Source: a virus. From it: a DNA stretch of 64,000 bases. The number at the start of each line of letters is the position of its first letter. Within the stretch, counting starts at the first letter, position 1. Location of the stretch: the IMG/VR virus record IMGVR_UViG_3300008450_000004, positions 52,882 through 116,881 of that record, one strand, 5' to 3'. Below, piece after piece: positions 25,012 to 52,995 of this stretch. The notes under the pieces were generated by a model. That model searched no databases, was not told where the DNA came from, and saw only the letters and a program-made list of their open reading frames with translations. Position numbers and translations under genes: made by a program.

Positions 25012-27008
25012 ATAACATGAAAGGATTATTAAATAATAATGAAACATCGTTTGTTAATCCTGAACAAAAACAAACAGCAGTTGAATGGTTACATGAAATT
25101 GCAAAACAAAGAGAACCTGATAAGTTTGATTGGCAACAAGCCAAAGCAATGGAGAAAGAACAGATAATCAAAGCTATTGACTATTGTAGAGATAAATACA
25201 TTGATTCGGAAAATTACTACAACGAAACCTATGGAAAATAAAATAACAGCAATGCAACAACTACTTACTCAACTAAAAGACGAAAGAGCAAAACTTCCAA
25301 TACTTATTGAATGGGATAGATGTTATCAAGCTATTGAGATGGTAATACAAAATACTTATTTACCAATCGAGAAGAAGCAAATAATGTGTGCTTATGTTGA
25401 AGGATGTAGTGATTCTATTTTAGACGAATCAACAGATAAAACACGGTCAGAAGATTATTATAATGAAACATTTGAAAAAGAAGTAAGATGAAGAGAAATG
25501 AATTAAGAATTGGTAATTTAGTTGATTTAGGTAATAGAATTGCTAAAATTATTGAAATAAGTAATTTATCTTGTGTAGTTGTTGATTTAGAAGAAACACA
25601 AGATACAATAGAGGATTATGAACGAACAAAACCAATACCATTAACCGAAGAGTGGTTGTATAAATTTGGGTTTAAGGATATAGATAAAGGTGATCATGAT
25701 TATAATACATATACCGATTCAAACCACGACTACTATTTACAAATTGATGTTAGGAAAAAAGATGGTAAATATAGTATTTTAGATAATTCTTTTGATGATT
25801 TAAGGGATTTTTCAATGGTAGATATTAGTTATGTTCATCAACTTCAAAACCTTTATTTTGCTTTAACAGGTGAAGAATTAATTATGAATAATAATACATA
25901 CTCAATACCCATTTACGAAAACGGAATAAAAACAGAATGGAGTGTTGATGGTATTGTAGGTGATGAAAAATATTATCAACTATTAGAATTAGGTAATGGA
26001 AAAGATTTACCTGATATGATTAACACAACAATAAAAGGATAGAAAGTTATGAATAAAGAACAAGAAGGTATTATTGAGTTGGTTGGTCAAGAATATACTA
26101 AATGGTTTTATGATAATGCGGTTCCATCTGTTAGTGGTAAGCCTATATTAAATGGGGAATGGATATTAACTAGATGTGAATTCATCAACAAATGTAAAAA
26201 CGATTCTGAGTTCTCTGAAAAGTGGGGATTAAAGATTGAGGAACGAGAGTTAGATATGATGGAAAGATGGGTGATAGCAGATTTAACACCTAATATGGAA
26301 GAATTTGATTTTGCTAATTATATGTGCGATAAACATAATGTCCCAACCAAACTAATCACAATAACATATAAAAACGAAAGGATAGAAAGTTATGAATAAT
26401 AAAATCAAAAAAGGAAATCTGAATTATGACCAATCAGGTAGAGCATACCCCGATAATCCACAAATAAAAGAAAATTGGAATTGTATTTGGGAAAAAGATG
26501 GTAAACATTATAAGTTAGTTAGTGATAATGAGCATAAAGAATGGGAAGAAATAGAAAAACAATAGAAAGTTATGAATAATCTTAGAACTATAACTCTTAC
26601 AAATCCATCATATACTTTTGTTGGAATATATCCTAAACTTATAATAAATTTTGATACAGATAAAAATGATACTGAATTAGATGGGATGATTGTTGATGGT
26701 ACTGAAACTACACTTAATAAAGTATCTACAACCGTTAAATGTAAATTATCATATAAAGATGGTAAATTAACTGGAGAAAAAATAAAATAATGAATAAAAG
26801 AAGAGACCAAATAGAATCACTATTAAATATGGAAGACCCAATAACAAAACAAAATTGGATGGGTTGGGATAAAAAAGACTGTTCAGAAGTAGGGTTGTGC
26901 GAAATCCTATTAGCACAACTTATCAGAGAACATAAACAAGAGAATGGTGAGTGGTATGATACCGATTACGATAAAATAAAATTAAGATACAATGAACAAC
27001 CTAGATAA
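25002..27008 (+). CDS. run of small mosaic accessory genes (includes an unlisted 57-aa ORF at 26392-26565)
   Basis: tightly packed ORFs; KQTAVEWL and NELRIGN family motifs. Confidence 0.55.
26039..26579 (+). repeat. three copies of ATAGAAAGTTATGAATAA at consecutive gene starts
   Basis: exact 18-mers at 26039, 26382 and 26562. Confidence 0.85.
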
Positions 27009-27063
27009 AACATACACAGCACTCCTTCAAGACATTCTTGATAATGGATTTTTCCGAAGATAG
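26992..27063 (+). pseudogene. orphaned 5' fragment of thyA
   Basis: MNNLDKTYTALLQDILDNGFFRR* aligns with the ThyA start MNKLDLDYQNLLKDILENG. Confidence 0.75.
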
Positions 27064-27106
27064 ATAATGTTCCTGTATTTTATAATATTTATAATAAAAA
27101 AATATT

Positions 27107-27826
27107 ATGAAAGCATACATTTATAAAAAGACACTACTTCTAACTGGAAGATCATATATAGGTCAACATAATGGAAATGATCCTAACTATTATGGAAGTG
27201 GAGTAGATTGGAAAAAAGATATTAAAAAATACAATATAGACTGGAATCAGGATATTATAACTGAAATTTTAGAATACGTTGAAGATATTAATCAATTAGA
27301 TGAAAGAGAAGAATATTGGTTAAAACATTTTGATGTAGTCAATAACCCGTTATATTACAATAAAACAACAAAACCATTTGGTCCTATTACTCATTCTGAA
27401 GAAACAAGAATAATAATATCTAATAAAAATAAAGGGAAAAAAAGAGAAGGAGAAGCATTAGATAATTTAAGAAAAGGACATAAAAAACGTATTTTAAATA
27501 TAAATAGAGAGAAGATATCTCAAACTAAAAAAGGACATGAGTGTTATAAAAATCCTGAAAGAGCAGAGAAAATAAAAAAAGCTAATTTAGGAAAAAAAAG
27601 AACAGAAGAAACTAAACAAAAAATGAGCAAAGCTCTTCTAGGTAAAAGTACAAAACCTAAAAAACAAATAAAAGAATATGATTTAGAACAAAATTTCATC
27701 CAAACTTGGAATTCAGTAAATGAATTAATATCTTATTATAAAGAAAATAATTTAGGTTTTGATTATACTACATTTTTAAAAAAACAAAAAGAAAATAAAC
27801 CTTATAAAAACCGTTATTGGTTATGA
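27107..27826 (+). mobile_element. free-standing GIY-YIG homing endonuclease with NUMOD3-like repeats
   Basis: YIY...YIG, YYGSG, HSEETR, RTEETKQKMS. Confidence 0.85.
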
Positions 27827-28941
27827 ATAAATTAGATTTAGATTACCAAAATTTACTAAAAGATATTTTAGAAAATGGCATAAAAAAAGAAACTAGAAAT
27901 GGTGGTACCATTAGTGTATTTGGTAGACAAATACGTCATAAAATGAGTGAAGGATTTCCACTTCTTACAACCAAGAAGATGAGTTGGAAATCAATTGTAA
28001 CAGAGTTATTATGGTTCTTACGTGGTGAGACATCAATAGAATATCTCTTAAAAAACGATTGCAATATCTGGACAGGAGATGCGTATAAGAATTATTGTGA
28101 AAATATAAATCTTCCACCAACACGAACATTACCATTGGGAACTAAGGTAATTCCTACATTATACACACAAGAAGAATTCATCAACAAAATCAAAACAGAT
28201 GATGAGTTTGCTAAACAGTGGGGTGAATTAGGTCCGATTTATGGTAAGCAATGGAGAAGATGGAAAGGTAAGTTAGTTGATAAATCAATAGAGTTTGATG
28301 CACATACTGCCTGGGTACCTGAGCAAATAGATCAAATTGCAAACTTAATCAACGACCTAAAAACAAACCCAGACTCAAGACGATTAATGGTTAATGCTTG
28401 GAATGTAGGTGAATTAGACCAAATGGTACTTCCTCCTTGTCATTATAGCTTTCAAGTTTATACAAGAGAGTTGAGTAAAGATGAACGATTAGAATGTCTA
28501 AATAAGATAAAGGATAAAGATGGTTTGTTTATCACAAAGTTACCACATAAACATTTACGTGAGCTGTTTGAAAAACATAACATTCCAACCAGAGCAATCT
28601 CTTTAATGTGGAATCAACGTTCAGTAGATACATTCTTAGGTTTACCATTCAATATTGCTTCTTATGGATTGTTATTAGAAATCATTGCTAAAGAAGTTAA
28701 TATGGTTCCTGATGAACTTATAGGTAACTTAGGCGATACACATCTTTATTCTAATCATATTGAACAAGCTAAAGAACAAATTGGTAGAGAACCATATCCA
28801 TTACCAACATTAAATATTTTTGAACCAACAATTGGTAAAAAAATATCTATACTTGATAATTTACATATATGGTCACCTAATTGTTTTATTATAGAAAACT
28901 ACCAATCACACCCAACAATTAAAGCACCTTTATCAAATTGA
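27823..28941 (+). CDS. thyA: thymidylate synthase
   Basis: FPLLTTKK, ELLWFL, LPPCHY, QRSVD.FLGLPFNIASY. Confidence 0.97.
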   Translation: MNKLDLDYQNLLKDILENGIKKETRNGGTISVFGRQIRHKMSEGFPLLTTKKMSWKSIVTELLWFLRGETSIEYLLKNDCNIWTGDAYKNYCENINLPPTRTLPLGTKVIPTLYTQEEFINKIKTDDEFAKQWGELGPIYGKQWRRWKGKLVDKSIEFDAHTAWVPEQIDQIANLINDLKTNPDSRRLMVNAWNVGELDQMVLPPCHYSFQVYTRELSKDERLECLNKIKDKDGLFITKLPHKHLRELFEKHNIPTRAISLMWNQRSVDTFLGLPFNIASYGLLLEIIAKEVNMVPDELIGNLGDTHLYSNHIEQAKEQIGREPYPLPTLNIFEPTIGKKISILDNLHIWSPNCFIIENYQSHPTIKAPLSN

Positions 28942-28969
28942 TCGATATTTATATTAAATAACAAACATA

Positions 28970-29281
28970 ATGAAAAAATCAGAGCTAAAACAAATTATTA
29001 AAGAAGAAATTAGTAAGATAATAAACGAATTTAAATACGAAATAATTGATCCTCAACAATCAAAATAATCATTAAATAATATATTAGACGCAATAAAATT
29101 ACTAAATAACAATGGATTGAAATTAACTCCTGAAGATAAAAGTGGTCATTATTCAGGCGGATATAATCATATCAATTCAATGTATGTAAATAGCCCCGTT
29201 CCTTTTGATGTATTAATAAGAAAGGCTAATGATATATTAGCTCAAAACGACATGGAGCACTTAAAGATTATTGAAGTATAA
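28970..29281 (+). pseudogene. ELKQIIKEEI-leader protein with an in-frame TAA at 29066
   Basis: the frame stays open for about 70 codons after the stop. Confidence 0.55.
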
Positions 29282-29284
29282 TAA

Positions 29285-29944
29285 ATGAATAAAACTCCTC
29301 CTTACATATCAGATGATTTTCAAATAGGACCAGATGGTGCGTTTGAATACATTGAAGATGATATTGTTAGAAATAGAGGAAATAAAAATATGAGTAATAA
29401 AGAAGATAAAATATTAAGGGAAATATACAAACGTGCTTATGCTGCTGCTACACCACCAGCCGATTTTGATATATTAATAGCTAATGCTACCTTAGACGAA
29501 TATAATAGAAAAGTAATACCATATAACGATTATGAGTTAGAAGATGGTATTGCCCAACAAATAATAGATGATGTAATGAAGGAATTTAAAGTAGCGAAAT
29601 GGAAACGTCAATTGTTTAATAATACATATTGGTTAGGTTGTTCACCTAAGAGTAAACAAGATGATTTATCAGATTGGAATGTTACACTTAATGATGGAAT
29701 CTCTATAATAAATTAAGGCTTGGCAGAGTCTTTTTTGTATATTTATAAAAATAAATTTAACATGGATGATATTGAAGAAAAAAATTATCGAATGGAGTTA
29801 TTTAGGAATTCACCTAATTACAAATGGCCTAAAGTAGATTCAGAGGAAATGATTAAACCTCATTCAAAAAAAGGTCGTAAACCAAAACCCTCTAAACGTA
29901 TTATAAATAAATCATCTGAACATTATAAATGGTGGAGAGATTAA
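29285..29944 (+). CDS. two hypothetical proteins (29285-29716, about 29762-29944)
   Basis: ORF track. Confidence 0.5.
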
Positions 29945-30144
29945 TATGATAGTAACAAATAAAACACAAGAAGTTATAGAAGAATTTGGTGTAGACCTGG
30001 TTTATGAAGTAATTGAAATAGTGTCAATGTCAGATGCTGATGGTGCATATACAATGTTTGGGGATATGGGTATGTTTGATCATCAGGCCTGTGTTGAAAT
30101 GTTGTATTTCGAATAAAAAATTATATTTTTAATTGTATAAGATT

Positions 30145-30177
30145 GGGACTGTCAAAGTCCCTTTTTTATCTTTACAC
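30145..30177 (+). promoter_or_regulatory. hairpin plus GTCAA-N11-TATCTTTA promoter motif at the head of the cassette array
   Basis: GGGAC-TGTCAAA-GTCCC-TTTTTTATCTTTACAC. Confidence 0.55.
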
Positions 30178-30267
30178 CTGTTAAACGTCCGATGATAAAC
30201 AATCGTTTTAATGTTGTTTATCATTTGTTATATTTAGTTTTCGTTTAATTTACAAAATAATAAAAAT

Positions 30268-30516
30268 ATGGAAAAAGAAAAATTTATTGATGATAATGGT
30301 AAAGAAATATATGAGATTTCTTGTAAGACCGTATATAAGGAAGAGGATTTATCACCACATATTGTGTGTAATTTCACCTTAAAAAATATTGATGAAAATT
30401 GGGTAGTCAATATGAAAGAAGAAGATAGAGAAGAATTCATAACTGATGCTTTTTATAAGTTAAAATATTTTTTAAGGGGTGAAATTGGTAGTATTAAAAA
30501 ATTAAACGAAAATTGA
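30268..30516 (+). CDS. cassette 1 ORF, hypothetical
   Basis: ends just before the ATATAAC core. Confidence 0.65.
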   Translation: MEKEKFIDDNGKEIYEISCKTVYKEEDLSPHIVCNFTLKNIDENWVVNMKEEDREEFITDAFYKLKYFLRGEIGSIKKLNEN

Positions 30517-30650
30517 ATATAACGATTCGCAGGTATGAAACGTGCCAACACAAATGATAATTGAAACAATGAATTTGAAATTAACATAAATACTAACTTA
30601 GATGCACCAAGGGCATGTTTTATACTTGCTGTTAGGCATCTGTAAAAATT

Positions 30651-30818
30651 ATGGATATGAAAACGAAAAATTACATTAAAACTTATTATAAGTTATACTT
30701 TACTGAGTGGAAATGGGTAATACTTGGAGTTGGTGCATTACCAATATTTGTACTGATATTGTTATCAGGGATACTACATGACATTACACACCCACTTAGT
30801 AATTTTTATTGTGCATAA
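30651..30818 (+). CDS. cassette 2 ORF, 55-aa single-TM protein (not in ORF track)
   Basis: MDMKTKNYIKTYYKLYFTEWKWVILGVGALPIFVLILLSG...; stop codon lies within GCATAAC. Confidence 0.6.
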   Translation: MDMKTKNYIKTYYKLYFTEWKWVILGVGALPIFVLILLSGILHDITHPLSNFYCA

Positions 30819-31073
30819 CGGCTGCGTGTATGAAACGTAGCCACACACAACACTTGATATAAACCACAGACCTTAATTGGCTATGTTTTATACACGTTGT
30901 TATAAATATGGTTTTAGGTGGCGAAAGCAGTAGCACCATCTATTTGAATGTATTTGATTTAGTACTGGCGAGGGAAAAGTTAGTCATTCACACCTAAAAC
31001 TTGTTTATAACGTTTTGCGTATTGGCGTTGTTGCCAACACTAATGTTAAATTGAAAAAATAAATTTGAAATAT

Positions 31074-31295
31074 ATGGAAAATATTGATTTGAAACAAGAA
31101 AGCAATAATGCTAATACGCTGTTATCGGCAGTTTCTCGTCCTGTTGCTAAAATGAAAGTACAATGGCATGGGTATGATTGTATTATACAGAAACTACGAT
31201 ACAGAGATAAGGTTGCTAAACTCAAACCTGATTATAGTGGTAAACCCATGCCATACGATTATTTTTGGGTAGATTTTAATGAAATCGGTTTTTGA
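31074..31295 (+). CDS. cassette 4 ORF, starts inside the hairpin loop
   Basis: MENIDLKQESNNANTLLSAVS...; reads through the stem and GTT. Confidence 0.55.
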   Translation: MENIDLKQESNNANTLLSAVSRPVAKMKVQWHGYDCIIQKLRYRDKVAKLKPDYSGKPMPYDYFWVDFNEIGF

Positions 31296-31350
31296 AATTG
31301 CCGATAACGGTTTGCGTGTTTATTTAGTTGCGATTTAAAAATACAAAATT

Positions 31351-31545
31351 ATGATAAAAGAAAAAGAATACTTAGAAGCAAAAAAGATTGTTGAAACCTA
31401 CGAAAGCGAGCAATTGAATAAACACGCTGTTAGTGGGCAAAGCGAACAGTTACCAAACTCTTGCGAATGTGATAATGTAGAAACATTCAATGGCTGGGGT
31501 AACGAAAAATGTATTAGATGTATAGACTGTGGCAGAGTTTGGTAA
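31351..31545 (+). CDS. cassette 5 ORF, zinc-ribbon-like, starts inside the hairpin loop
   Basis: EQLNKHAVSGQSEQL crosses the stem; CEC...CIDC. Confidence 0.6.
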   Translation: MIKEKEYLEAKKIVETYESEQLNKHAVSGQSEQLPNSCECDNVETFNGWGNEKCIRCIDCGRVW

Positions 31546-31608
31546 TTGCCACTAACTATTATATATACTTAACCATATTTTCTTACCAATAAAATCAATA
31601 ATTTAAAT

Positions 31609-32406
31609 ATGAAAATTCTTAAAGTATTTGAAGAAAAATTAAGATACAAAAACTATTCTAATAACAGTATCAAGTTATATATTTCTTATTTAAAACTTTT
31701 TTTAGAAACGGAAAAAATTAAAGACCCATATCAAGTAAGAACTCAACAGATAGTCTCATTCCTTGAAAATTACCCATATACTTCTTGTAGCCAACAAAAT
31801 CAATATATAGGTGCTCTTAAACTATTTGCTAAATATATCTTAAATAAAAAGGATATTCATTTAAGTAAAATAGAAAGACCTAAATCAGAAAAGAAATTGC
31901 CGAAAGTGGTAGATGGAGAGCTTATCAAAACACAACTACAAAAAATAGAAAATATTAAACATAAAGCAATTCTTAGTTTAACCTATTCAGTTGGACTAAG
32001 AGTATCTGAAATAGTTAATCTTAAAATCGAAAGTATCGATTCTAAACGAATGTTGATTCACATTAAAAACGCTAAAGGTAAAAAAGATAGAATTGTACCC
32101 TTATCACCAACTGTTTTGAATCTACTTAGAGAATATTATATAGAATATAAACCAAAAGAATACTTATTTAATGGTCAAAACTCAAATCAATATTCAATAG
32201 GTAGTTGTCAAAAAATCTATAAAAAATACATTGATGAGAATAGTTCAATACATAATCTTCGACATTCTTCATTTACCGGCTTATTAGAAAACGGAACTGA
32301 TTTAAGAATAATTCAAAAAATAGCAGGACATTCTAATATCAAAACTACTGAAATATATACTCACGTATCAAATCAACTCTTAGGTAAAGTGAATTTAGTT
32401 ATTTAG
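31609..32406 (+). CDS. tyrosine recombinase, integron-integrase-like (N-terminal SAM-like domain)
   Basis: GLRVSE (R), AKGKKDR (K), HNLRH, AGHSNIKTTEIYTHVS (H, Y); 265 aa. Confidence 0.92.
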   Translation: MKILKVFEEKLRYKNYSNNSIKLYISYLKLFLETEKIKDPYQVRTQQIVSFLENYPYTSCSQQNQYIGALKLFAKYILNKKDIHLSKIERPKSEKKLPKVVDGELIKTQLQKIENIKHKAILSLTYSVGLRVSEIVNLKIESIDSKRMLIHIKNAKGKKDRIVPLSPTVLNLLREYYIEYKPKEYLFNGQNSNQYSIGSCQKIYKKYIDENSSIHNLRHSSFTGLLENGTDLRIIQKIAGHSNIKTTEIYTHVSNQLLGKVNLVI

Positions 32407-32437
32407 AAAGTCAAATCTTCTTTATTATCTTTACAAT

Positions 32438-32995
32438 ATGAAAAAAATTTTAGTAATACATCCTGATGATAGGTCAACCGATTTTTTAAAACCAATATAT
32501 GAAAATCTACCTAATATAACTGTTATTACAGGGGGTATTTCATATATGAATGTTAGACAATTAATAAAAGAGCATGATAGAGTAATAGCCATGGGTCATG
32601 GTTCACCTTACGGTTTGTTTTCAATGGGTAAATTTCCTAATTCAGGTGGTATGATTATTGATTCAATGATGGTAGATGTCTTAAGTGAAAAAAATAACAA
32701 CATATATATTTGGTGCAATGCAGATCTGTTTGTTGATAGATATAAATTAAATGGTATATACTCAGGTATGTTTATTTCTGAAGTAAGTGAATCAATTTAC
32801 TGTGGAATACCTTCAACTCAAGAACAAATAAATGAATCAAATAATACATTTGCTAAAGCATTAGGAGAACAATTATTAATTGAATCATCACTTGAACGAG
32901 TATATGATAATACAAATCAAGCTTATCGCTTATTATCTGAATTAAATCAAGTTGCTAAATATAATCAACAACGATTTTATTACGCTTTAGATTAG
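32438..32995 (+). CDS. hypothetical protein with possible His-Cys dyad (peptidase-like)
   Basis: MGHGSPYG...IWCNA. Confidence 0.45.
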   Translation: MKKILVIHPDDRSTDFLKPIYENLPNITVITGGISYMNVRQLIKEHDRVIAMGHGSPYGLFSMGKFPNSGGMIIDSMMVDVLSEKNNNIYIWCNADLFVDRYKLNGIYSGMFISEVSESIYCGIPSTQEQINESNNTFAKALGEQLLIESSLERVYDNTNQAYRLLSELNQVAKYNQQRFYYALD

Positions 32996-33442
32996 AAAAG
33001 GCAAAACAATTTTATTATATTTAAATAAATAAAAAGATTATGTATAAATGGAAAGTTACATTCACTACACCAACAGCAGGTGGACGTTCACTCACAGAAA
33101 TAATAGAAGCACAACAATGGTTTTATGCTAAAGCCATGTTAGAGTCAAAGTATGATAAAATTAAAATTCTTCAATATACACCTATTAATAAATAATATGA
33201 ACGCAATAAAAATAGTATATTACTCAGAGGTTATAAATAATATGGGTAGAACAGAAAGCTCTGCTAAAGGACATAATATATTTTCCGTTCTGAACAACCC
33301 ATATGAGTGGACTGATGATATGGAGTTTTATGATGAAGGAGGGCAAAAGTACTTTATTGATGACCTTATAGGTAAAGAAGTATCAGTACCGGATATTGGA
33401 ATATTTACTGTAGAAGAATAAAAATTTAAAATAAAAATAAAT

Positions 33443-33763
33443 ATGACAACAATAGCACAGCAATTAAAAATTAAAGAATTTCCATTTTTTATTAAAGACT
33501 CTAAAGGAAATTTAATCTACTATGAAAATTCATATGGTTCTTGGAGTAAATATGAATATGATTCAAATGGAAACGAAATCTACCGTGAAATATCAAACGG
33601 ATATTGGAGTAAACGTGAATTTGATTCTAATGGAAACGAAATCTATCGTGAAAATTCATATGGAACAATCATAGATAACAGACCTAAAACAGTTGAATTA
33701 ACAATGGATGATATTGCTAAGATGTTAAGAATTGACGTTAATAATTTAAAAATAAAAAAGTAA
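33443..33763 (+). CDS. tandem beta-repeat protein
   Basis: repeats of (EY/EF)DSNGNEIYRE(N/I)S.G. Confidence 0.65.
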   Translation: MTTIAQQLKIKEFPFFIKDSKGNLIYYENSYGSWSKYEYDSNGNEIYREISNGYWSKREFDSNGNEIYRENSYGTIIDNRPKTVELTMDDIAKMLRIDVNNLKIKK

Positions 33764-33768
33764 ATAAT

Positions 33769-36443
33769 ATGAGCACATTTAAAACATTACCAAGTAATCA
33801 AATCAATGATGGTATCCAGTATTTAGCATTTTATCCTAATGGGTATGGCGCATCAATCGTTCAACATAGATTTTCATACGGGTACGATCAAGGCTTGTGG
33901 GAATTGGCGGTAGCTAAAGGTACTGAAGAAGATTGGAATATATGTTATGATACTCCAATTACGTCAGATGTGTTAGGTTACTTGTCTGAGGCTGAAGTAG
34001 AAGATGTACTTCTTCAAATAGAAGCTTTAGAGGCTAATCCTAAAATAGTACCTTATAGTGAAGGCACAGTAATATTAGATAAAATATAAAATATAAAATA
34101 TGTCAATAATGAGTTTATTAGGTATGTTATTTTTAATATTAGCATCTATACCAAAAAATAAAATTACCAAAACACCCCATAACGAAAATCTTATTAATTT
34201 GGTTTTATCTATTTTGTGTTTTGTATCATTTATATTATCAATGACGTTACATTAGTTTGTATAGCAAAATTATTTTTATATATTTAACATGAAAAACATA
34301 CATTTATTACCAACATCAAAACCAAGTAGGTTAGTATATTCAGGTAACAATAAAAATTTGTTATTTTCAAAAGAACCTATTTCATTTAGAACATTTGAAA
34401 GAAGTCCACAAAACATCTACATCACTTCTGATGAAGAAATTAAAGAAGGAGATTATATTATTTCCTTAGTTGATGATGAATCATTTGAAATGGTATGGAA
34501 ATGTGATAAATCTCAAATCAAAAATATGATTGATTTTGATTTAGAGTTTAAAAAAATAATACTAACAACAGACCAAGACTTAATTAAAGATAATGTACAA
34601 TCTATTGATGATGAGTTCCTTGAATGGTTTGTAAAGAATCCAAGTTGTGAGAGTGTTGAGGTGAAAATTGATTGTGATATATGTGCTTTAGAGTGTACAA
34701 CAATTAAATGTCCTAATTTGTTTTACAAAATCATCATTCCACAAGAAGAACGTAAACAAATTAAATGTTATTGTGGTCATACTATAACTTGTGATTGTGA
34801 ACCTTTACAAGAAACACTTGAAAAAGCTGCTGAAAAATTTTGGGATAAGTTAAGTTTTGACGATGCTTTTAAAGCAGGTGCTAAATGGCAAGCAGAAAGA
34901 ATGTATAGTGAGGAAGATATGATTGAGTTTGCAGAGTTTGTAGCCACTTATCCTGATAAAAATAAAAATATAAATGGTCAAATATTACATGCTAAATCAA
35001 AATATGATGGCTCTGAAAGAACAGTTGATTTATTAGAACAATTTAAAAAAAAATAATATGAATAAATATGACACTCAACAACATATAATAGTATGGATAA
35101 TGATACTAATACCTTTATTATGTTTGTTTTTATGTGATTAAGGTTTGAACAATTTAAAAAAATAAGACTTATGGAATCAGTAAAACAAACAGCAGTAGAA
35201 TGGTTAATAGAACAATTAACCCCTTCAATATCATTGCAACAAAAACATATTGATGAATTAAAAGAACAAGCCAAAGAAATGGAGAAACAGAGAACAATTT
35301 CATTTGCTTTACTTTGTATGCTTAGTAAACAAGACGTACACATTAATTTAAGAAATGACCTTGTTAGAAAGTACAACGAACAATACGGAGGTAACAAATG
35401 ACACCAAAAGAAAAAGCTAAAGAATTACTTGATAAGTTTGATTGGCAACAATCGCATTAAAAAAGATGCTAAAAGAAGGACAGCCTACATCCTTTGTAGT
35501 AATCAGGCTTATGATTTTAAAATTACATTTAAATAAAATAAATTATGAGTAAACCTAGTTATGAAAAATTATTTGAAGAAAATTGGAAATTAATAAAAGA
35601 AAATGTTTGGATTAAAAATAAGTAATAAAATAGATACTAATACCGGTATATTTCCAATAACACAATTTAAGTTTGATGAAAAAACCGGTTGTCATTGGGC
35701 TAGTTTAGGTAAAATTTGTGATTTAAACTATGGTGAGCGAGAATGGTTAATTTCCTGTCCTGAAGATGAGGGTTGTTGGATAAAATCTAAATGGAAAAAA
35801 TTACATAAAATGGAAGATAAAATTACGAGCACAGTAAATGCGCTAAAGAAGCAAATAAATGAATAAAGTTAGGTAGCACGAAAATGTAGTTAAGGGTGAC
35901 AAAAACGATAGTGTAGGGAAACCGAAAAGAAAGTTTCGGGCGCCCGAAAAATAAGGTTAGGGTGACGGGTGGAATGAGTTTAGGTGATTGGTGGGGGTGT
36001 GGTGGTGCAGGACGAGAAAATTATGCACAACACCACACCAATTCACAACGACTCATATATCAATATATATTATTCGCACATTTTGTACCAATTTTTTATG
36101 TTCTTTTGTATTTTTTGTATGTTTTTGTTTGTTTTGTCAAGGCTTTTTACTTATTTTTACCTAAACAATAAAACCAACCATGTCAAACGTAAAAATTAAG
36201 TCTATTTTTGAACAAATCTCAGAAATAGCATTCAACACAGCCGATTTAGGCTTTGCAAAACAACACACAATTGAATTTGTTTCATCAAAAAACATCAACG
36301 ACAAAGACAAACAATCAATTTTGTTCAATATTAATGAATGTAAAACCCTCTACAAATTTCAAAACTACATTGCTAATGCATTACTTAAATATGAAGGGTT
36401 AGGGGCAGACAGGATGGCGAATGAATATAAACAACACAGATAA
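33769..36443 (+). CDS. small accessory genes (33769-34089, 34289-35056, 35171-35401, 36180-36443 and others)
   Basis: ORF track; KNIHLLPT and KQTAVEWL family motifs. Confidence 0.55.
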
Positions 36444-52404: not shown

Positions 52405-52995
52405 ATGACATTTACAAGAGAACAAATTGAAGCAGCAGTTAAATTAAAAGGATATGTTTGGTTTGAAGGTGCAAAAGACTACGATTTAAATATTGTTGGA
52501 GTTAGAAACTCGGCAACTGGTAACAAAGTTACTAATGTTTTTGATGATACTATGACAGTGTCTTATAAACTAAATGGACAGTGGGTTTTTAAACAATGGA
52601 TGTGTACAACTGACCCCGGTACTAAAGGTGTTAAAGAATTTCATAACGCAGCTGGGGTTGCTCGTTTAGTAGAAGGACAATACAGAGGTTCACATTCTAT
52701 CGGATTACATCAGGGTAAATATGAAGCTTTAAAACAAGCTAAACCCGTTAAGGTATATCGTGATGCTAATAAAGACATGACCTATGATGAAAGTAAAACC
52801 GAAACTGGTGTTTTTGGTATTAATATTCATAAAGCGGGTGCTGATTCAACTTATGTTGAAAATTGGTCAGAAGGATGTCAAGTATTTAAAAAATCTGCTG
52901 ATTTTGATTCATTCATGATAATCGCTAAAGAAGCAGCAAAAATACATGGCGCTTCGTTTACTTATACATTAATTGAAAGTGCTGATATAAAATAG
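52405..52995 (+). CDS. L,D-transpeptidase-like cell-wall enzyme (possible lysin)
   Basis: GINIHKAG...WSEGCQV His/Cys motif. Confidence 0.6.
   Translation: MTFTREQIEAAVKLKGYVWFEGAKDYDLNIVGVRNSATGNKVTNVFDDTMTVSYKLNGQWVFKQWMCTTDPGTKGVKEFHNAAGVARLVEGQYRGSHSIGLHQGKYEALKQAKPVKVYRDANKDMTYDESKTETGVFGINIHKAGADSTYVENWSEGCQVFKKSADFDSFMIIAKEAAKIHGASFTYTLIESADIK

Follow-up and report, generated by a model that had tools for sequence, protein, structure and literature searches.

Introduction

Integrons are the textbook example of structure-specific cassette capture, and their definition rests on the IntI integrase together with a recombination site at the 3′ end of the cassette. In attC recombination, the folded strand is cleaved between the A and the C of the 5′ AAC. 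Here we describe a stretch of viral DNA of 64,000 nucleotides (nt), hereafter the window (positions 52,882 to 116,881 of IMG/VR virus record IMGVR_UViG_3300008450_000004, a 116.9-kilobase (kb) record with a completeness estimate of 70%), in which DNA hairpins alternate with small genes beside a gene for a tyrosine recombinase. We consider it probable that positions 30182-31608 of the window form a phage-borne, integron-like array of five mobile cassettes, each made of a hairpin and the body that follows it, with the recombination site at the 5′ end of the gene.

Related features are known from other systems. T4-type phages have hyperplastic internal-protein loci, where variable proteins share a conserved N-terminal targeting peptide; the shuffling of these genes is ascribed to homologous recombination, and the loci are not known to have hairpin sites or a dedicated recombinase. 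Using integron-detection software, Qi et al. (2023; PMC9892861) found canonical attC clusters and integron fragments in 21 phages, mostly without an integrase, and IntI1 recombined the sites; their main text also deals with cleavage of the folded attC strand at the 5′ AAC. An earlier note on the present DNA, made from the sequence alone, had stated that canonical cassettes place the open reading frame (ORF) outside attC. This holds as a rule, although in class 1 integrons ORF-11 and ORF-18 run across attI1 and short ORFs occur inside attC, an overlap reported to aid cassette expression (PMC8876359). Our literature searches, which did not reach subscription journals and supplementary files, found no description of the system reported here.

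Results

Organization of the array

The window has a G+C content of about 28%, and all of its ORFs of at least 150 amino acids (aa) lie on the plus strand. The stretch 30182-31556 is built of five hairpins (H0-H4) and five bodies (B0-B4) in alternation, as counted in the earlier note (H0 with a degenerate left core, then H1-H4). B4 is followed by a 56-nt stretch and then by the recombinase gene. The features are as follows (bp, base pairs).

30182-30230, plus strand: H0, a minimal hairpin of 48 nt at the array's far end; left core degenerate (TAAAC), GTTA at 30227-30230
30227-30523, plus strand: body B0; terminal inverted repeats 30227-30251 and 30499-30523; ORF 30268-30516 begins within the body
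30520-30634, plus strand: H1, TAAC to GTTA; 18-bp stem with 3 G.T wobbles
30631-30819, plus strand: body B1; ORF 30651-30818, the TAA stop of which is the TAA of the next TAAC core
30816-30902, plus strand: H2, 87 nt; 20-bp stem; 88.6% identity to a hairpin of locus L028
30899-31011, plus strand: body B2, 113 nt; its sole ORF is 30908-30997, 29 codons
31008-31124, plus strand: H3, 117 nt; TAAC 31008-31011, arms 31017-31034 and 31102-31119, loop 31035-31101, GTTA 31121-31124
31074-31295, plus strand: ORF of cassette 3, 73 aa; leader from the H3 loop and right arm, remainder from B3
31121-31308, plus strand: body B3; inverted repeats 31121-31135 and 31294-31308
31305-31432, plus strand: H4, 128 nt; TAAC 31305-31308, arms 31314-31331 and 31410-31427, loop 31332-31409, GTTA 31429-31432
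31351-31545, plus strand: ORF of cassette 4, 64 aa; helical leader, then a Cys-rich body (CxC...CxxCxxC)
31429-31556, plus strand: body B4; inverted repeats 31429-31461 and 31534-31556 with one 9-nt insertion; last TAAC 31553-31556
31553-31608, plus strand: attI-like array end; TAAC, then TATTATATATAC
31609-32406, plus strand: Xer-like tyrosine recombinase, 265 aa

Every body from B0 to B4 has its own terminal inverted repeats, which reach outward from GTTA and TAAC. Those of B0 are 25 nt long and 92% complementary, and both mismatches, judged by eye, are G.T on the plus strand. Just upstream of H0, at 30145-30167, we noticed by eye a terminator-like, G+C-rich stem with a run of T residues.

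Recently moved units run from TAAC to TAAC

The earlier note had favoured crossover at the AAC end of the hairpin, so that hairpin and downstream body travel together. The alternative is a G/TTA crossover of the canonical integron type, in which case each cassette would comprise a body and the hairpin after it, each hairpin would donate promoter, start codon and leader to whichever body came to lie behind it, and chimeric proteins would arise by design. Contigs of four metagenome runs were placed on 29000-33000, and only the contig-covered parts were used. In run X5, a 476-nt contig joins 31006 to 31304, and the 297 nt skipped are exactly H3 plus B3 (31007-31303), an indel from TAAC to TAAC. 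Six letters (ATAACG) are in common at the joint, and 193 nt lie on its shorter side. Since a second X5 contig contains 31020-31294, both forms, with and without H3 and B3, are present in this run. An 865-nt contig of run X6 contains 31007-31556 with unrelated sequence on either side, and in run X4 contigs start or end at 31007, 31304 and 31556. Two further IMG/VR contigs carry such units between different flanks, namely L058 (31007-31556, H3+B3+H4+B4, at 100%) and L059 (31304-31556, H4+B4, at 96.9%). In L058, L059 and a third locus, L060, the TAAC that closes B4 leads into G and another hairpin, whereas in the window it leads into TATTATATATAC.

The ends of in-array alignments are also informative. 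With thresholds of at least 90% identity and at least 60 nt of body, 13 alignments were obtained, from which L005/L006, an alignment of the recombinase gene itself, was set aside. In the remaining 12 the right end lies at TAAC (seven) or inside the body (five) and never at GTTA; the left end lies at TAAC in seven, 8-10 nt before GTTA in four and inside the hairpin in one. All four alignments of at least 96% identity have their right end at TAAC, and three of these have their left end at TAAC as well. Crossover at G/TTA is further contradicted by the pairs L007/L012 and L016/L025, in which bodies 93-96% identical are followed by unrelated hairpins, and by the listed arrays themselves, which mostly close with TAAC and not GTTA. 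L062, a single locus from a metagenome pattern scan, is an 81% copy of leader plus B4, again ending at TAAC; a metagenome protein scan gave no confirmed case among 175 stretches. A histogram of the endpoints of alignments of at least 160 nt comprises 52 cases, too few to decide the matter alone.

Overall, the X5 indel, the L058 and L059 units, the tally of right ends and the L007/L012 and L016/L025 pairs support the view that the unit moved in recent times is a hairpin with its downstream body and that crossover falls within (A)TAAC(G), which would leave the gene whole. All recent transfers and indels found run from TAAC to TAAC, in accordance with the option that the earlier note preferred.

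Strand preference and conservation of the hairpins

On the plus strand, H1-H4 follow a common plan consisting of TAAC, 4-5 unpaired nt, a stem of 18-20 bp, a loop of 34-78 nt, the second arm, 1 nt and GTTA. The 18-bp stems of H3 and H4 are free of mismatches on this strand if G.T is counted as a pair (three and two wobbles, respectively). All 11 non-Watson-Crick positions in the H1-H4 stems are G.T on the plus strand, and for this reason the hairpin scan misses these stems on the minus strand. Folded as single-stranded DNA, the plus strand yields the full hairpin for H1, H2, H3 and H4, whereas on the minus strand H3 and H4 form only a shorter stem, H1 has no stable stem and H2 folds differently. 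The z-scores of the plus-strand folds are modest (-3.6, -1.3, -1.8 and -3.7 for H1-H4).

To place the array in a family, 56 related loci were retrieved with the recombinase; they lie on contigs (up to 288 kb) of large uncultured phages and were scanned for hairpins (TAAC..GTTA, stem of at least 9). The scan found 234 hairpins on the plus strand upstream of the recombinase gene, six on the plus strand downstream of it and nine on the minus strand. When five duplicate loci were dropped, 203 hairpins in 36 arrays remained, in size classes of approximately 48, 78-93, 111-136 and 186-202 nt. With G.T and A.C scored alike (213 hairpins), the plus strand has 422 G.T against 79 A.C pairs, and the asymmetry of the spacers (left, 4-5 nt; right, 1 nt) is kept in 153 of the 213. 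The TAAC and GTTA cores and the 4-5/1 spacers are constant across families with differing stems. A control for hairpin number on reversed sequence (43 hits) was discarded as a null because reversal preserves self-complementarity, and the strand and side contrasts were used instead. Less than 1.2 kb lies upstream of the recombinase gene in 18 of the 56 loci, the contig end being the cause where the contig range is shown; these short stretches would fit a hypervariable region that breaks assemblies. Among GenBank phages, an 88-nt piece was the only DNA relative found.

Inverted repeats flank all hairpins and bodies and a tyrosine recombinase gene lies adjacent, an arrangement that might also serve shufflon-type inversion, with the alternating TAAC and GTTA as inverted sites and the segments between them flipped by the recombinase. 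We regard this as extremely improbable given the 240 plus-strand against nine minus-strand hairpins in the related loci, the plus-strand position of all window ORFs of the size given above, and the lack of any strand-changing joint among those listed from the four metagenome runs. Moreover, flipping a hairpin segment would move the ATG in its loop (see below) to the other strand.

The hairpins might instead be RNA elements with a role in processing, stability or translational control, or plain repeats, the mosaicism being due to homologous recombination and the recombinase having a different role, for instance dimer resolution or integration. The wobbles would suit an RNA hairpin, as G.U pairs, just as well as a DNA hairpin, and it is the transcribed strand that carries the hairpins. 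Within families, hairpins are conserved at 80-100%, which is enough for homologous exchange, some breakpoints fall within loops (L012, see below), and the recombinase is Xer-like rather than an IntI. Nevertheless, the boundaries of recent units fall at a core of 4-6 nt that is common to all hairpins, whichever family flanks it, and it is this core with its asymmetric spacers that is kept where stems differ. In addition, the arrays always adjoin the recombinase gene and mostly close with TAAC and a conserved site, and a search of Rfam in E-value mode over 27000-34000 returned zero matches. We consider an RNA or simple repeat origin of these features quite unlikely.

The 48-nt hairpin of the H0 type is 94-100% identical in many arrays (L005, L011, L025, L027, L028, L038 and others), with several copies per array, and the contig word depth summed over H0 in the four metagenome runs is approximately 400-1240, compared with 2-40 for its neighbours. 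It behaves like a very abundant, near-invariant repeat. Another unusual arrangement was seen in L031, where two identical 128-nt hairpins (2205-2332 and 2596-2723) are each followed by a body of just 21 nt. Their loops look tRNA-like by eye; ARAGORN finds no tRNA in L031.

Open reading frames that begin in hairpin loops

The earlier note had proposed that ORFs 31074-31295 and 31351-31545 start in hairpin loops, read through the right arm and GTT in two different frames and stop in or at the right inverted repeat, and this description proved accurate. Their ATG codons lie in the loops of H3 and H4. Across the right arm and GTTA, the first reads ..NNANTLL SAV.., with the G in codon position 3, and the second ..NKHAV SGQ.., with GTT as a codon. 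The TGA of the first (31293-31295) touches the repeat 31294-31308, and the TAA of the second (31543-31545) lies within 31534-31556. A TTG at 31065 is a possible alternative start for ORF 31074-31295.

In the arrays of the family, we counted 63 ATG-initiated ORFs with the start inside a hairpin and the end in the interval from -80 to +6 relative to the following TAAC. Sixteen of the 63 take their stop codon from the TAA of that TAAC, and in a further 21 the stop lies 7 or 9 nt ahead of the core. GTT is a codon in 50 of these ORFs, G occupies codon position 3 in 11 (phase 2), and the remaining two (phase 1) appear spurious, so that 61 were taken as real. Among the 99 hairpins longer than 100 nt, 60 have a plus-strand frame that stays open from right arm to body end, whereas only nine have such a frame on the minus strand. 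For hairpins of up to 100 nt the same stretch is open in 18 of 91, and the ORFs there begin in the body, as in B0 and B1. On these counts the loop-start open frames are not due to chance and are a trait of the family.

Pfam matches were obtained for four of the 61 ORFs, comprising two zinc-finger-like proteins and two complete DNA methyltransferases, the latter both from L050. The C-5 methylase (271 aa) matches Pfam from residue 29 and the N6_N4 methylase (255 aa) from residue 37. No further Met occurs in the N6_N4 methylase between the loop ATG and the domain, whereas the C-5 methylase has an ATG that overlaps the GTTA core (ATG TTA), six codons ahead of the Pfam match. A start at the core is thus conceivable for some of the phase-2 ORFs. 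The loop ATGs share a sequence context, with A at -14 to -11 in 45-47 of 59 and at -3 in 40 of 59, compared with 17-33 of 59 at most other positions. In Flavobacterium johnsoniae, A at -3, -6, -12 and -13 is reported to stimulate initiation (PMC6847099).

These data bear on the possibility that the loop-encoded parts are untranslated, that true starts lie downstream of GTTA, and that the open frame is a by-product of constraints on the hairpin sequence. ORF 31074-31295 speaks for it in part, because an internal Met (M27) that stands between invariant Lys residues is near-invariant among homologues and is a candidate for the real start, and three homologues have much shorter N-termini. The phase-2 core often follows AT, GT or TT, giving ATG, GTG or TTG codons that overlap GTTA, as in the C-5 methylase, and loop-encoded residues are more variable than bodies. 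On the other hand, R22, P23 and K26, upstream of Met 27, are conserved in the same homologues, ORF 31351-31545 has no in-frame ATG, GTG or TTG beyond GTTA, and the N6_N4 methylase has no alternative Met. The A-rich context of the loop ATGs, the excess of open plus-strand frames over the minus-strand control, and thirteen unrelated leaders of 40-66 codons that are all open at 28% G+C (see below) likewise argue against untranslated loops, which we judge unlikely. Instead, ORFs 31074-31295 and 31351-31545 are likely to be whole genes contained in their cassettes.

Two further loop-start ORFs, L040:5321-5566 and L022:371-661, have a charged N-terminus encoded by the loop and a hydrophobic stretch encoded by right arm and core, followed by Gly-Cys; judged by eye, these look like lipoprotein-like signal peptides. 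When the H4 leader of the window is compared by eye with that of L022, there are three synonymous and seven non-synonymous changes, from which selection on the peptide is not evident and no conclusion is drawn.

Reassortment of leaders and bodies

Several observations weigh against cassettes that always remain whole. A protein search with ORF 31351-31545 gave 26 clusters, of which two are the same cassette, 15 share its body and nine share its leader. The 15 same-body clusters have high identity over the body and unrelated, mostly longer, N-termini; 13 of them retain the ..V|SG junction at the GTT codon, while P0017 and P0018 diverge just upstream. At least 13 unrelated leaders, of 40-66 codons and all open, precede this body in frame. 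The nine same-leader clusters share the leader plus seven further residues and continue into different Cys-rich C-termini, so that a given loop peptide is not always joined to the same body, a question raised in the earlier note. At the DNA level, the similarity of L060 is limited to 31421-31556 (B4 and 8 nt of the right arm, 92.6%), which there follows another hairpin, roughly 200 nt long; that of L061 is limited to 31295-31423 (H4 to 6 nt before GTTA, 86.5%), with another body after it. Two body families, with homology from GTTA onwards, stand behind different hairpins or none: L003:5305-5480, L035:4422-4600 and 1902-2084, and L020:1611-1790 in the first, and L005:586-756, L040:885-1070, L011:3545-3735 and L009:5150-5347 in the second. 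Furthermore, every cassette context comes from a metagenome assembly, and a comparison of bodies by tblastx (27 pairs), asking whether the upstream or the downstream hairpin goes with the body, was uninformative because matches were short and hairpin classes alike.

In both body families, conservation covers some 175 nt from GTTA, including a TATATATA-rich stretch and about 17-20 initial codons, beyond which the proteins diverge. The L020 body is preceded by a hairpin-less junction (TAAC, 4 nt, GTTA). A conserved body with a variable leader is also seen in the 11 homologues of ORF 31074-31295. One hairpin, L012:780-900, is broken and chimeric. One family accounts for its left arm and some of its loop, and the L007 cassette for the remaining loop, the right arm and the body, which shows that loops, too, are sites of exchange.

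Crossover at G/TTA would account for one body with many leaders and one leader with many bodies, and for body families whose homology begins at GTTA. With GTT in frame in 50 of the 63 ORFs, most swaps would keep the frame, and the junction Val is near-invariant in an alignment of the 61 otherwise unrelated loop-start ORFs. The breakpoints do not fall at a fixed base, however, being scattered around the right arm and core, approximately 6-8 nt before GTTA in L061 and L060 and approximately 21 nt after it in the nine same-leader proteins. Moreover, the two ORFs of the window cross GTTA in different phases, so that a swap between them would break both. Together with the alignment ends described above, these findings make crossover at G/TTA an unlikely basis for the array. 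Of the earlier note's second option, crossover at GTT with the production of chimeras, it remains true that leaders and bodies reassort near GTTA with conserved phase; these events are older and their breakpoints scattered.

Since identity at the breakpoints (86-93%) is below that of the TAAC-bounded units and the breakpoints are scattered, leader-body reassortment looks like a slower, secondary process acting over longer times. Its route could be recombination of the minus strand, homologous exchange of similar arms, or repeated cassette genesis. A more far-reaching proposal is that GTTA is a frame-locked splice point at the DNA level and that leaders are exchangeable functional modules, swapped at or near GTTA in addition to the moves at TAAC, creating a combinatorial library of small effectors. 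In such a scheme, leaders and bodies would be swapped, for example, by rarer recombination of the minus-strand fold; GTT as a Val codon across unrelated hairpin families would ensure in-frame proteins; and two leaders would contribute the charged N-terminus of a lipoprotein-like signal peptide, with further leaders perhaps acting as targeting tags. We find this idea rather doubtful and continue to favour cassettes that move whole between TAAC cores.

The recombinase and the attI-like end

The recombinase aligns with archaeal XerA (4a8e) from 7 to 258 without a large gap. With IntI4 (2a3v) it aligns in two pieces, between which 30 residues of the query (177-206) stand opposite 78 of IntI4 (181-258). 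The insertion specific to the catalytic domain of IntI is described as essential for integron function and attC recombination (PMC8138268). All NCBIfam scores of the recombinase are below cut-off (given in parentheses), being 142.9 bits for TIGR02249 (265), 183.3 for XerA_Arch (220), 150.7 for XerC (335) and 149.4 for XerD (330). Thus, by these cut-offs it falls in no curated Xer family; no search for a dif-like site was made. From these alignments we classify the protein as Xer-like, lacking the IntI insertion and not an IntI. No relative of more than 38% identity was present among GenBank phages, the nearest being integrases of Cellulophaga and Polaribacter phages; the hosts of the closest relatives among isolated phages are Flavobacteriia.

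In most of the listed arrays (uncounted), the last TAAC leads into TATTATATATAC or a near variant of it, approximately 55-68 nt before the recombinase gene. The more distant relatives L047-L053 have another conserved stretch after TAAC. The TAAC with the TATTATATATAC-like stretch may be both an attI-like site and the promoter of the recombinase gene.

Discussion

Proposed mechanism

Starting from the anatomy of the array, the strand bias of its hairpins, the family-wide ORF pattern and the TAAC-to-TAAC units found in differing contexts, we propose the following model. In vivo, the plus strand, which is the coding strand, would fold as single-stranded DNA into hairpins with stems of 18-26 bp containing G.T wobbles. 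The 265-aa Xer-like recombinase presumably serves the array as its catalyst, binding the foot formed by TAAC and GTTA together with the stem. By analogy with AA/C cleavage of the folded attC strand, we tentatively place the cut phosphate in (A)TAAC(G), at the base of the hairpin on its 5′ side; a hairpin-plus-body unit would be excised or inserted through strand exchange in that TAAC. Once a unit is circular, the terminal repeats of its body would pair and add a duplex of 15-25 bp at the hairpin foot, and insertion of new units is expected at the terminal TAAC beside the recombinase gene.

The same hairpin would also serve in expression. In hairpins of at least about 113 nt, the loop is predicted to bear an A-rich translation start of the Bacteroidia type and an ATG; the right arm, the GTTA core and the left inverted repeat of the body would be translated as a leader of approximately 17-60 residues, with the stop codon in the right inverted repeat or formed by the TAA of the next TAAC. 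The site would precede the gene because the folded strand is the sense strand.

This phage family appears to do an integron-type job differently, with an Xer-like recombinase, reversed polarity of gene and site, and a recombination site that also codes. Should recombination be confirmed, the capture of hairpin cassettes would have arisen or spread beyond IntI, a dedicated engine for swapping small genes would exist in large environmental phages, and the arrays would offer a tractable model for a recombination site that tolerates translation. The sole annotated enzymes among the 61 loop-start ORFs are DNA methyltransferases. Integron-detection software tuned to IntI and canonical attC may overlook arrays of this kind.

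Comparison with known systems

The internal-protein loci of T4-type phages resemble the present arrays in having a short conserved leader on unrelated small proteins at a hypervariable phage locus; they differ in that their shuffling is ascribed to homologous recombination, and for the leaders of the hairpin cassettes a targeting role is only a possibility.

The phage attC clusters of Qi et al. are likewise phage-borne hairpin sites with cassettes, including DNA methyltransferase cassettes, yet their main text, to which this comparison is confined, describes no Xer-like recombinase, 5′ placement of the site or translated hairpin (PMC9892861). ORF-11 and ORF-18 provide a precedent for coding sequence that overlaps a recombination site and its crossover point. 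These are separate short peptides that act through translational coupling (PMC8876359), whereas the phage site appears to encode the N-terminus of the cassette protein itself, and does so systematically, in 61 of the 63 ORFs.

The closest likeness is to the integrons, with IntI, attC and attI, as in the Vibrio superintegron. Both have an array of short, mostly single-gene, hypervariable cassettes beside the gene of a tyrosine recombinase. Their sites, defined by structure, are imperfect hairpins that combine AAC and GTT cores with an unpaired spacer and a variable loop, and one of the two strands folds better; conserved hairpin families carry unrelated cargo, unit boundaries lie on the AAC side of the folded strand, and the array closes next to the recombinase gene with a distinct site, which in the phage is a putative counterpart of attI.

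Other features differ. An integron cassette consists of an ORF followed by a 3′ attC, with crossover at G/TT, whereas the phage units consist of a hairpin and its downstream body, from TAAC to TAAC; the site is placed 5′ of the gene and appears to be translated in part, and the folded strand is the coding strand. The stems, of 18-26 bp with G.T wobbles, are longer than those of attC, the spacer is asymmetric (4-5 nt on one side and 1 nt on the other), and no counterpart of the extrahelical bases was seen. Each phage body has terminal inverted repeats of 15-25 nt that would lengthen the stem in the circle, the genes of the array point toward the recombinase gene, and the host of the array is a large, lytic-looking phage. 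The recombinase finds its best score with archaeal XerA and has no IntI insertion; because the insertion is missing, the array would be integron-like in its working and yet not an integron.

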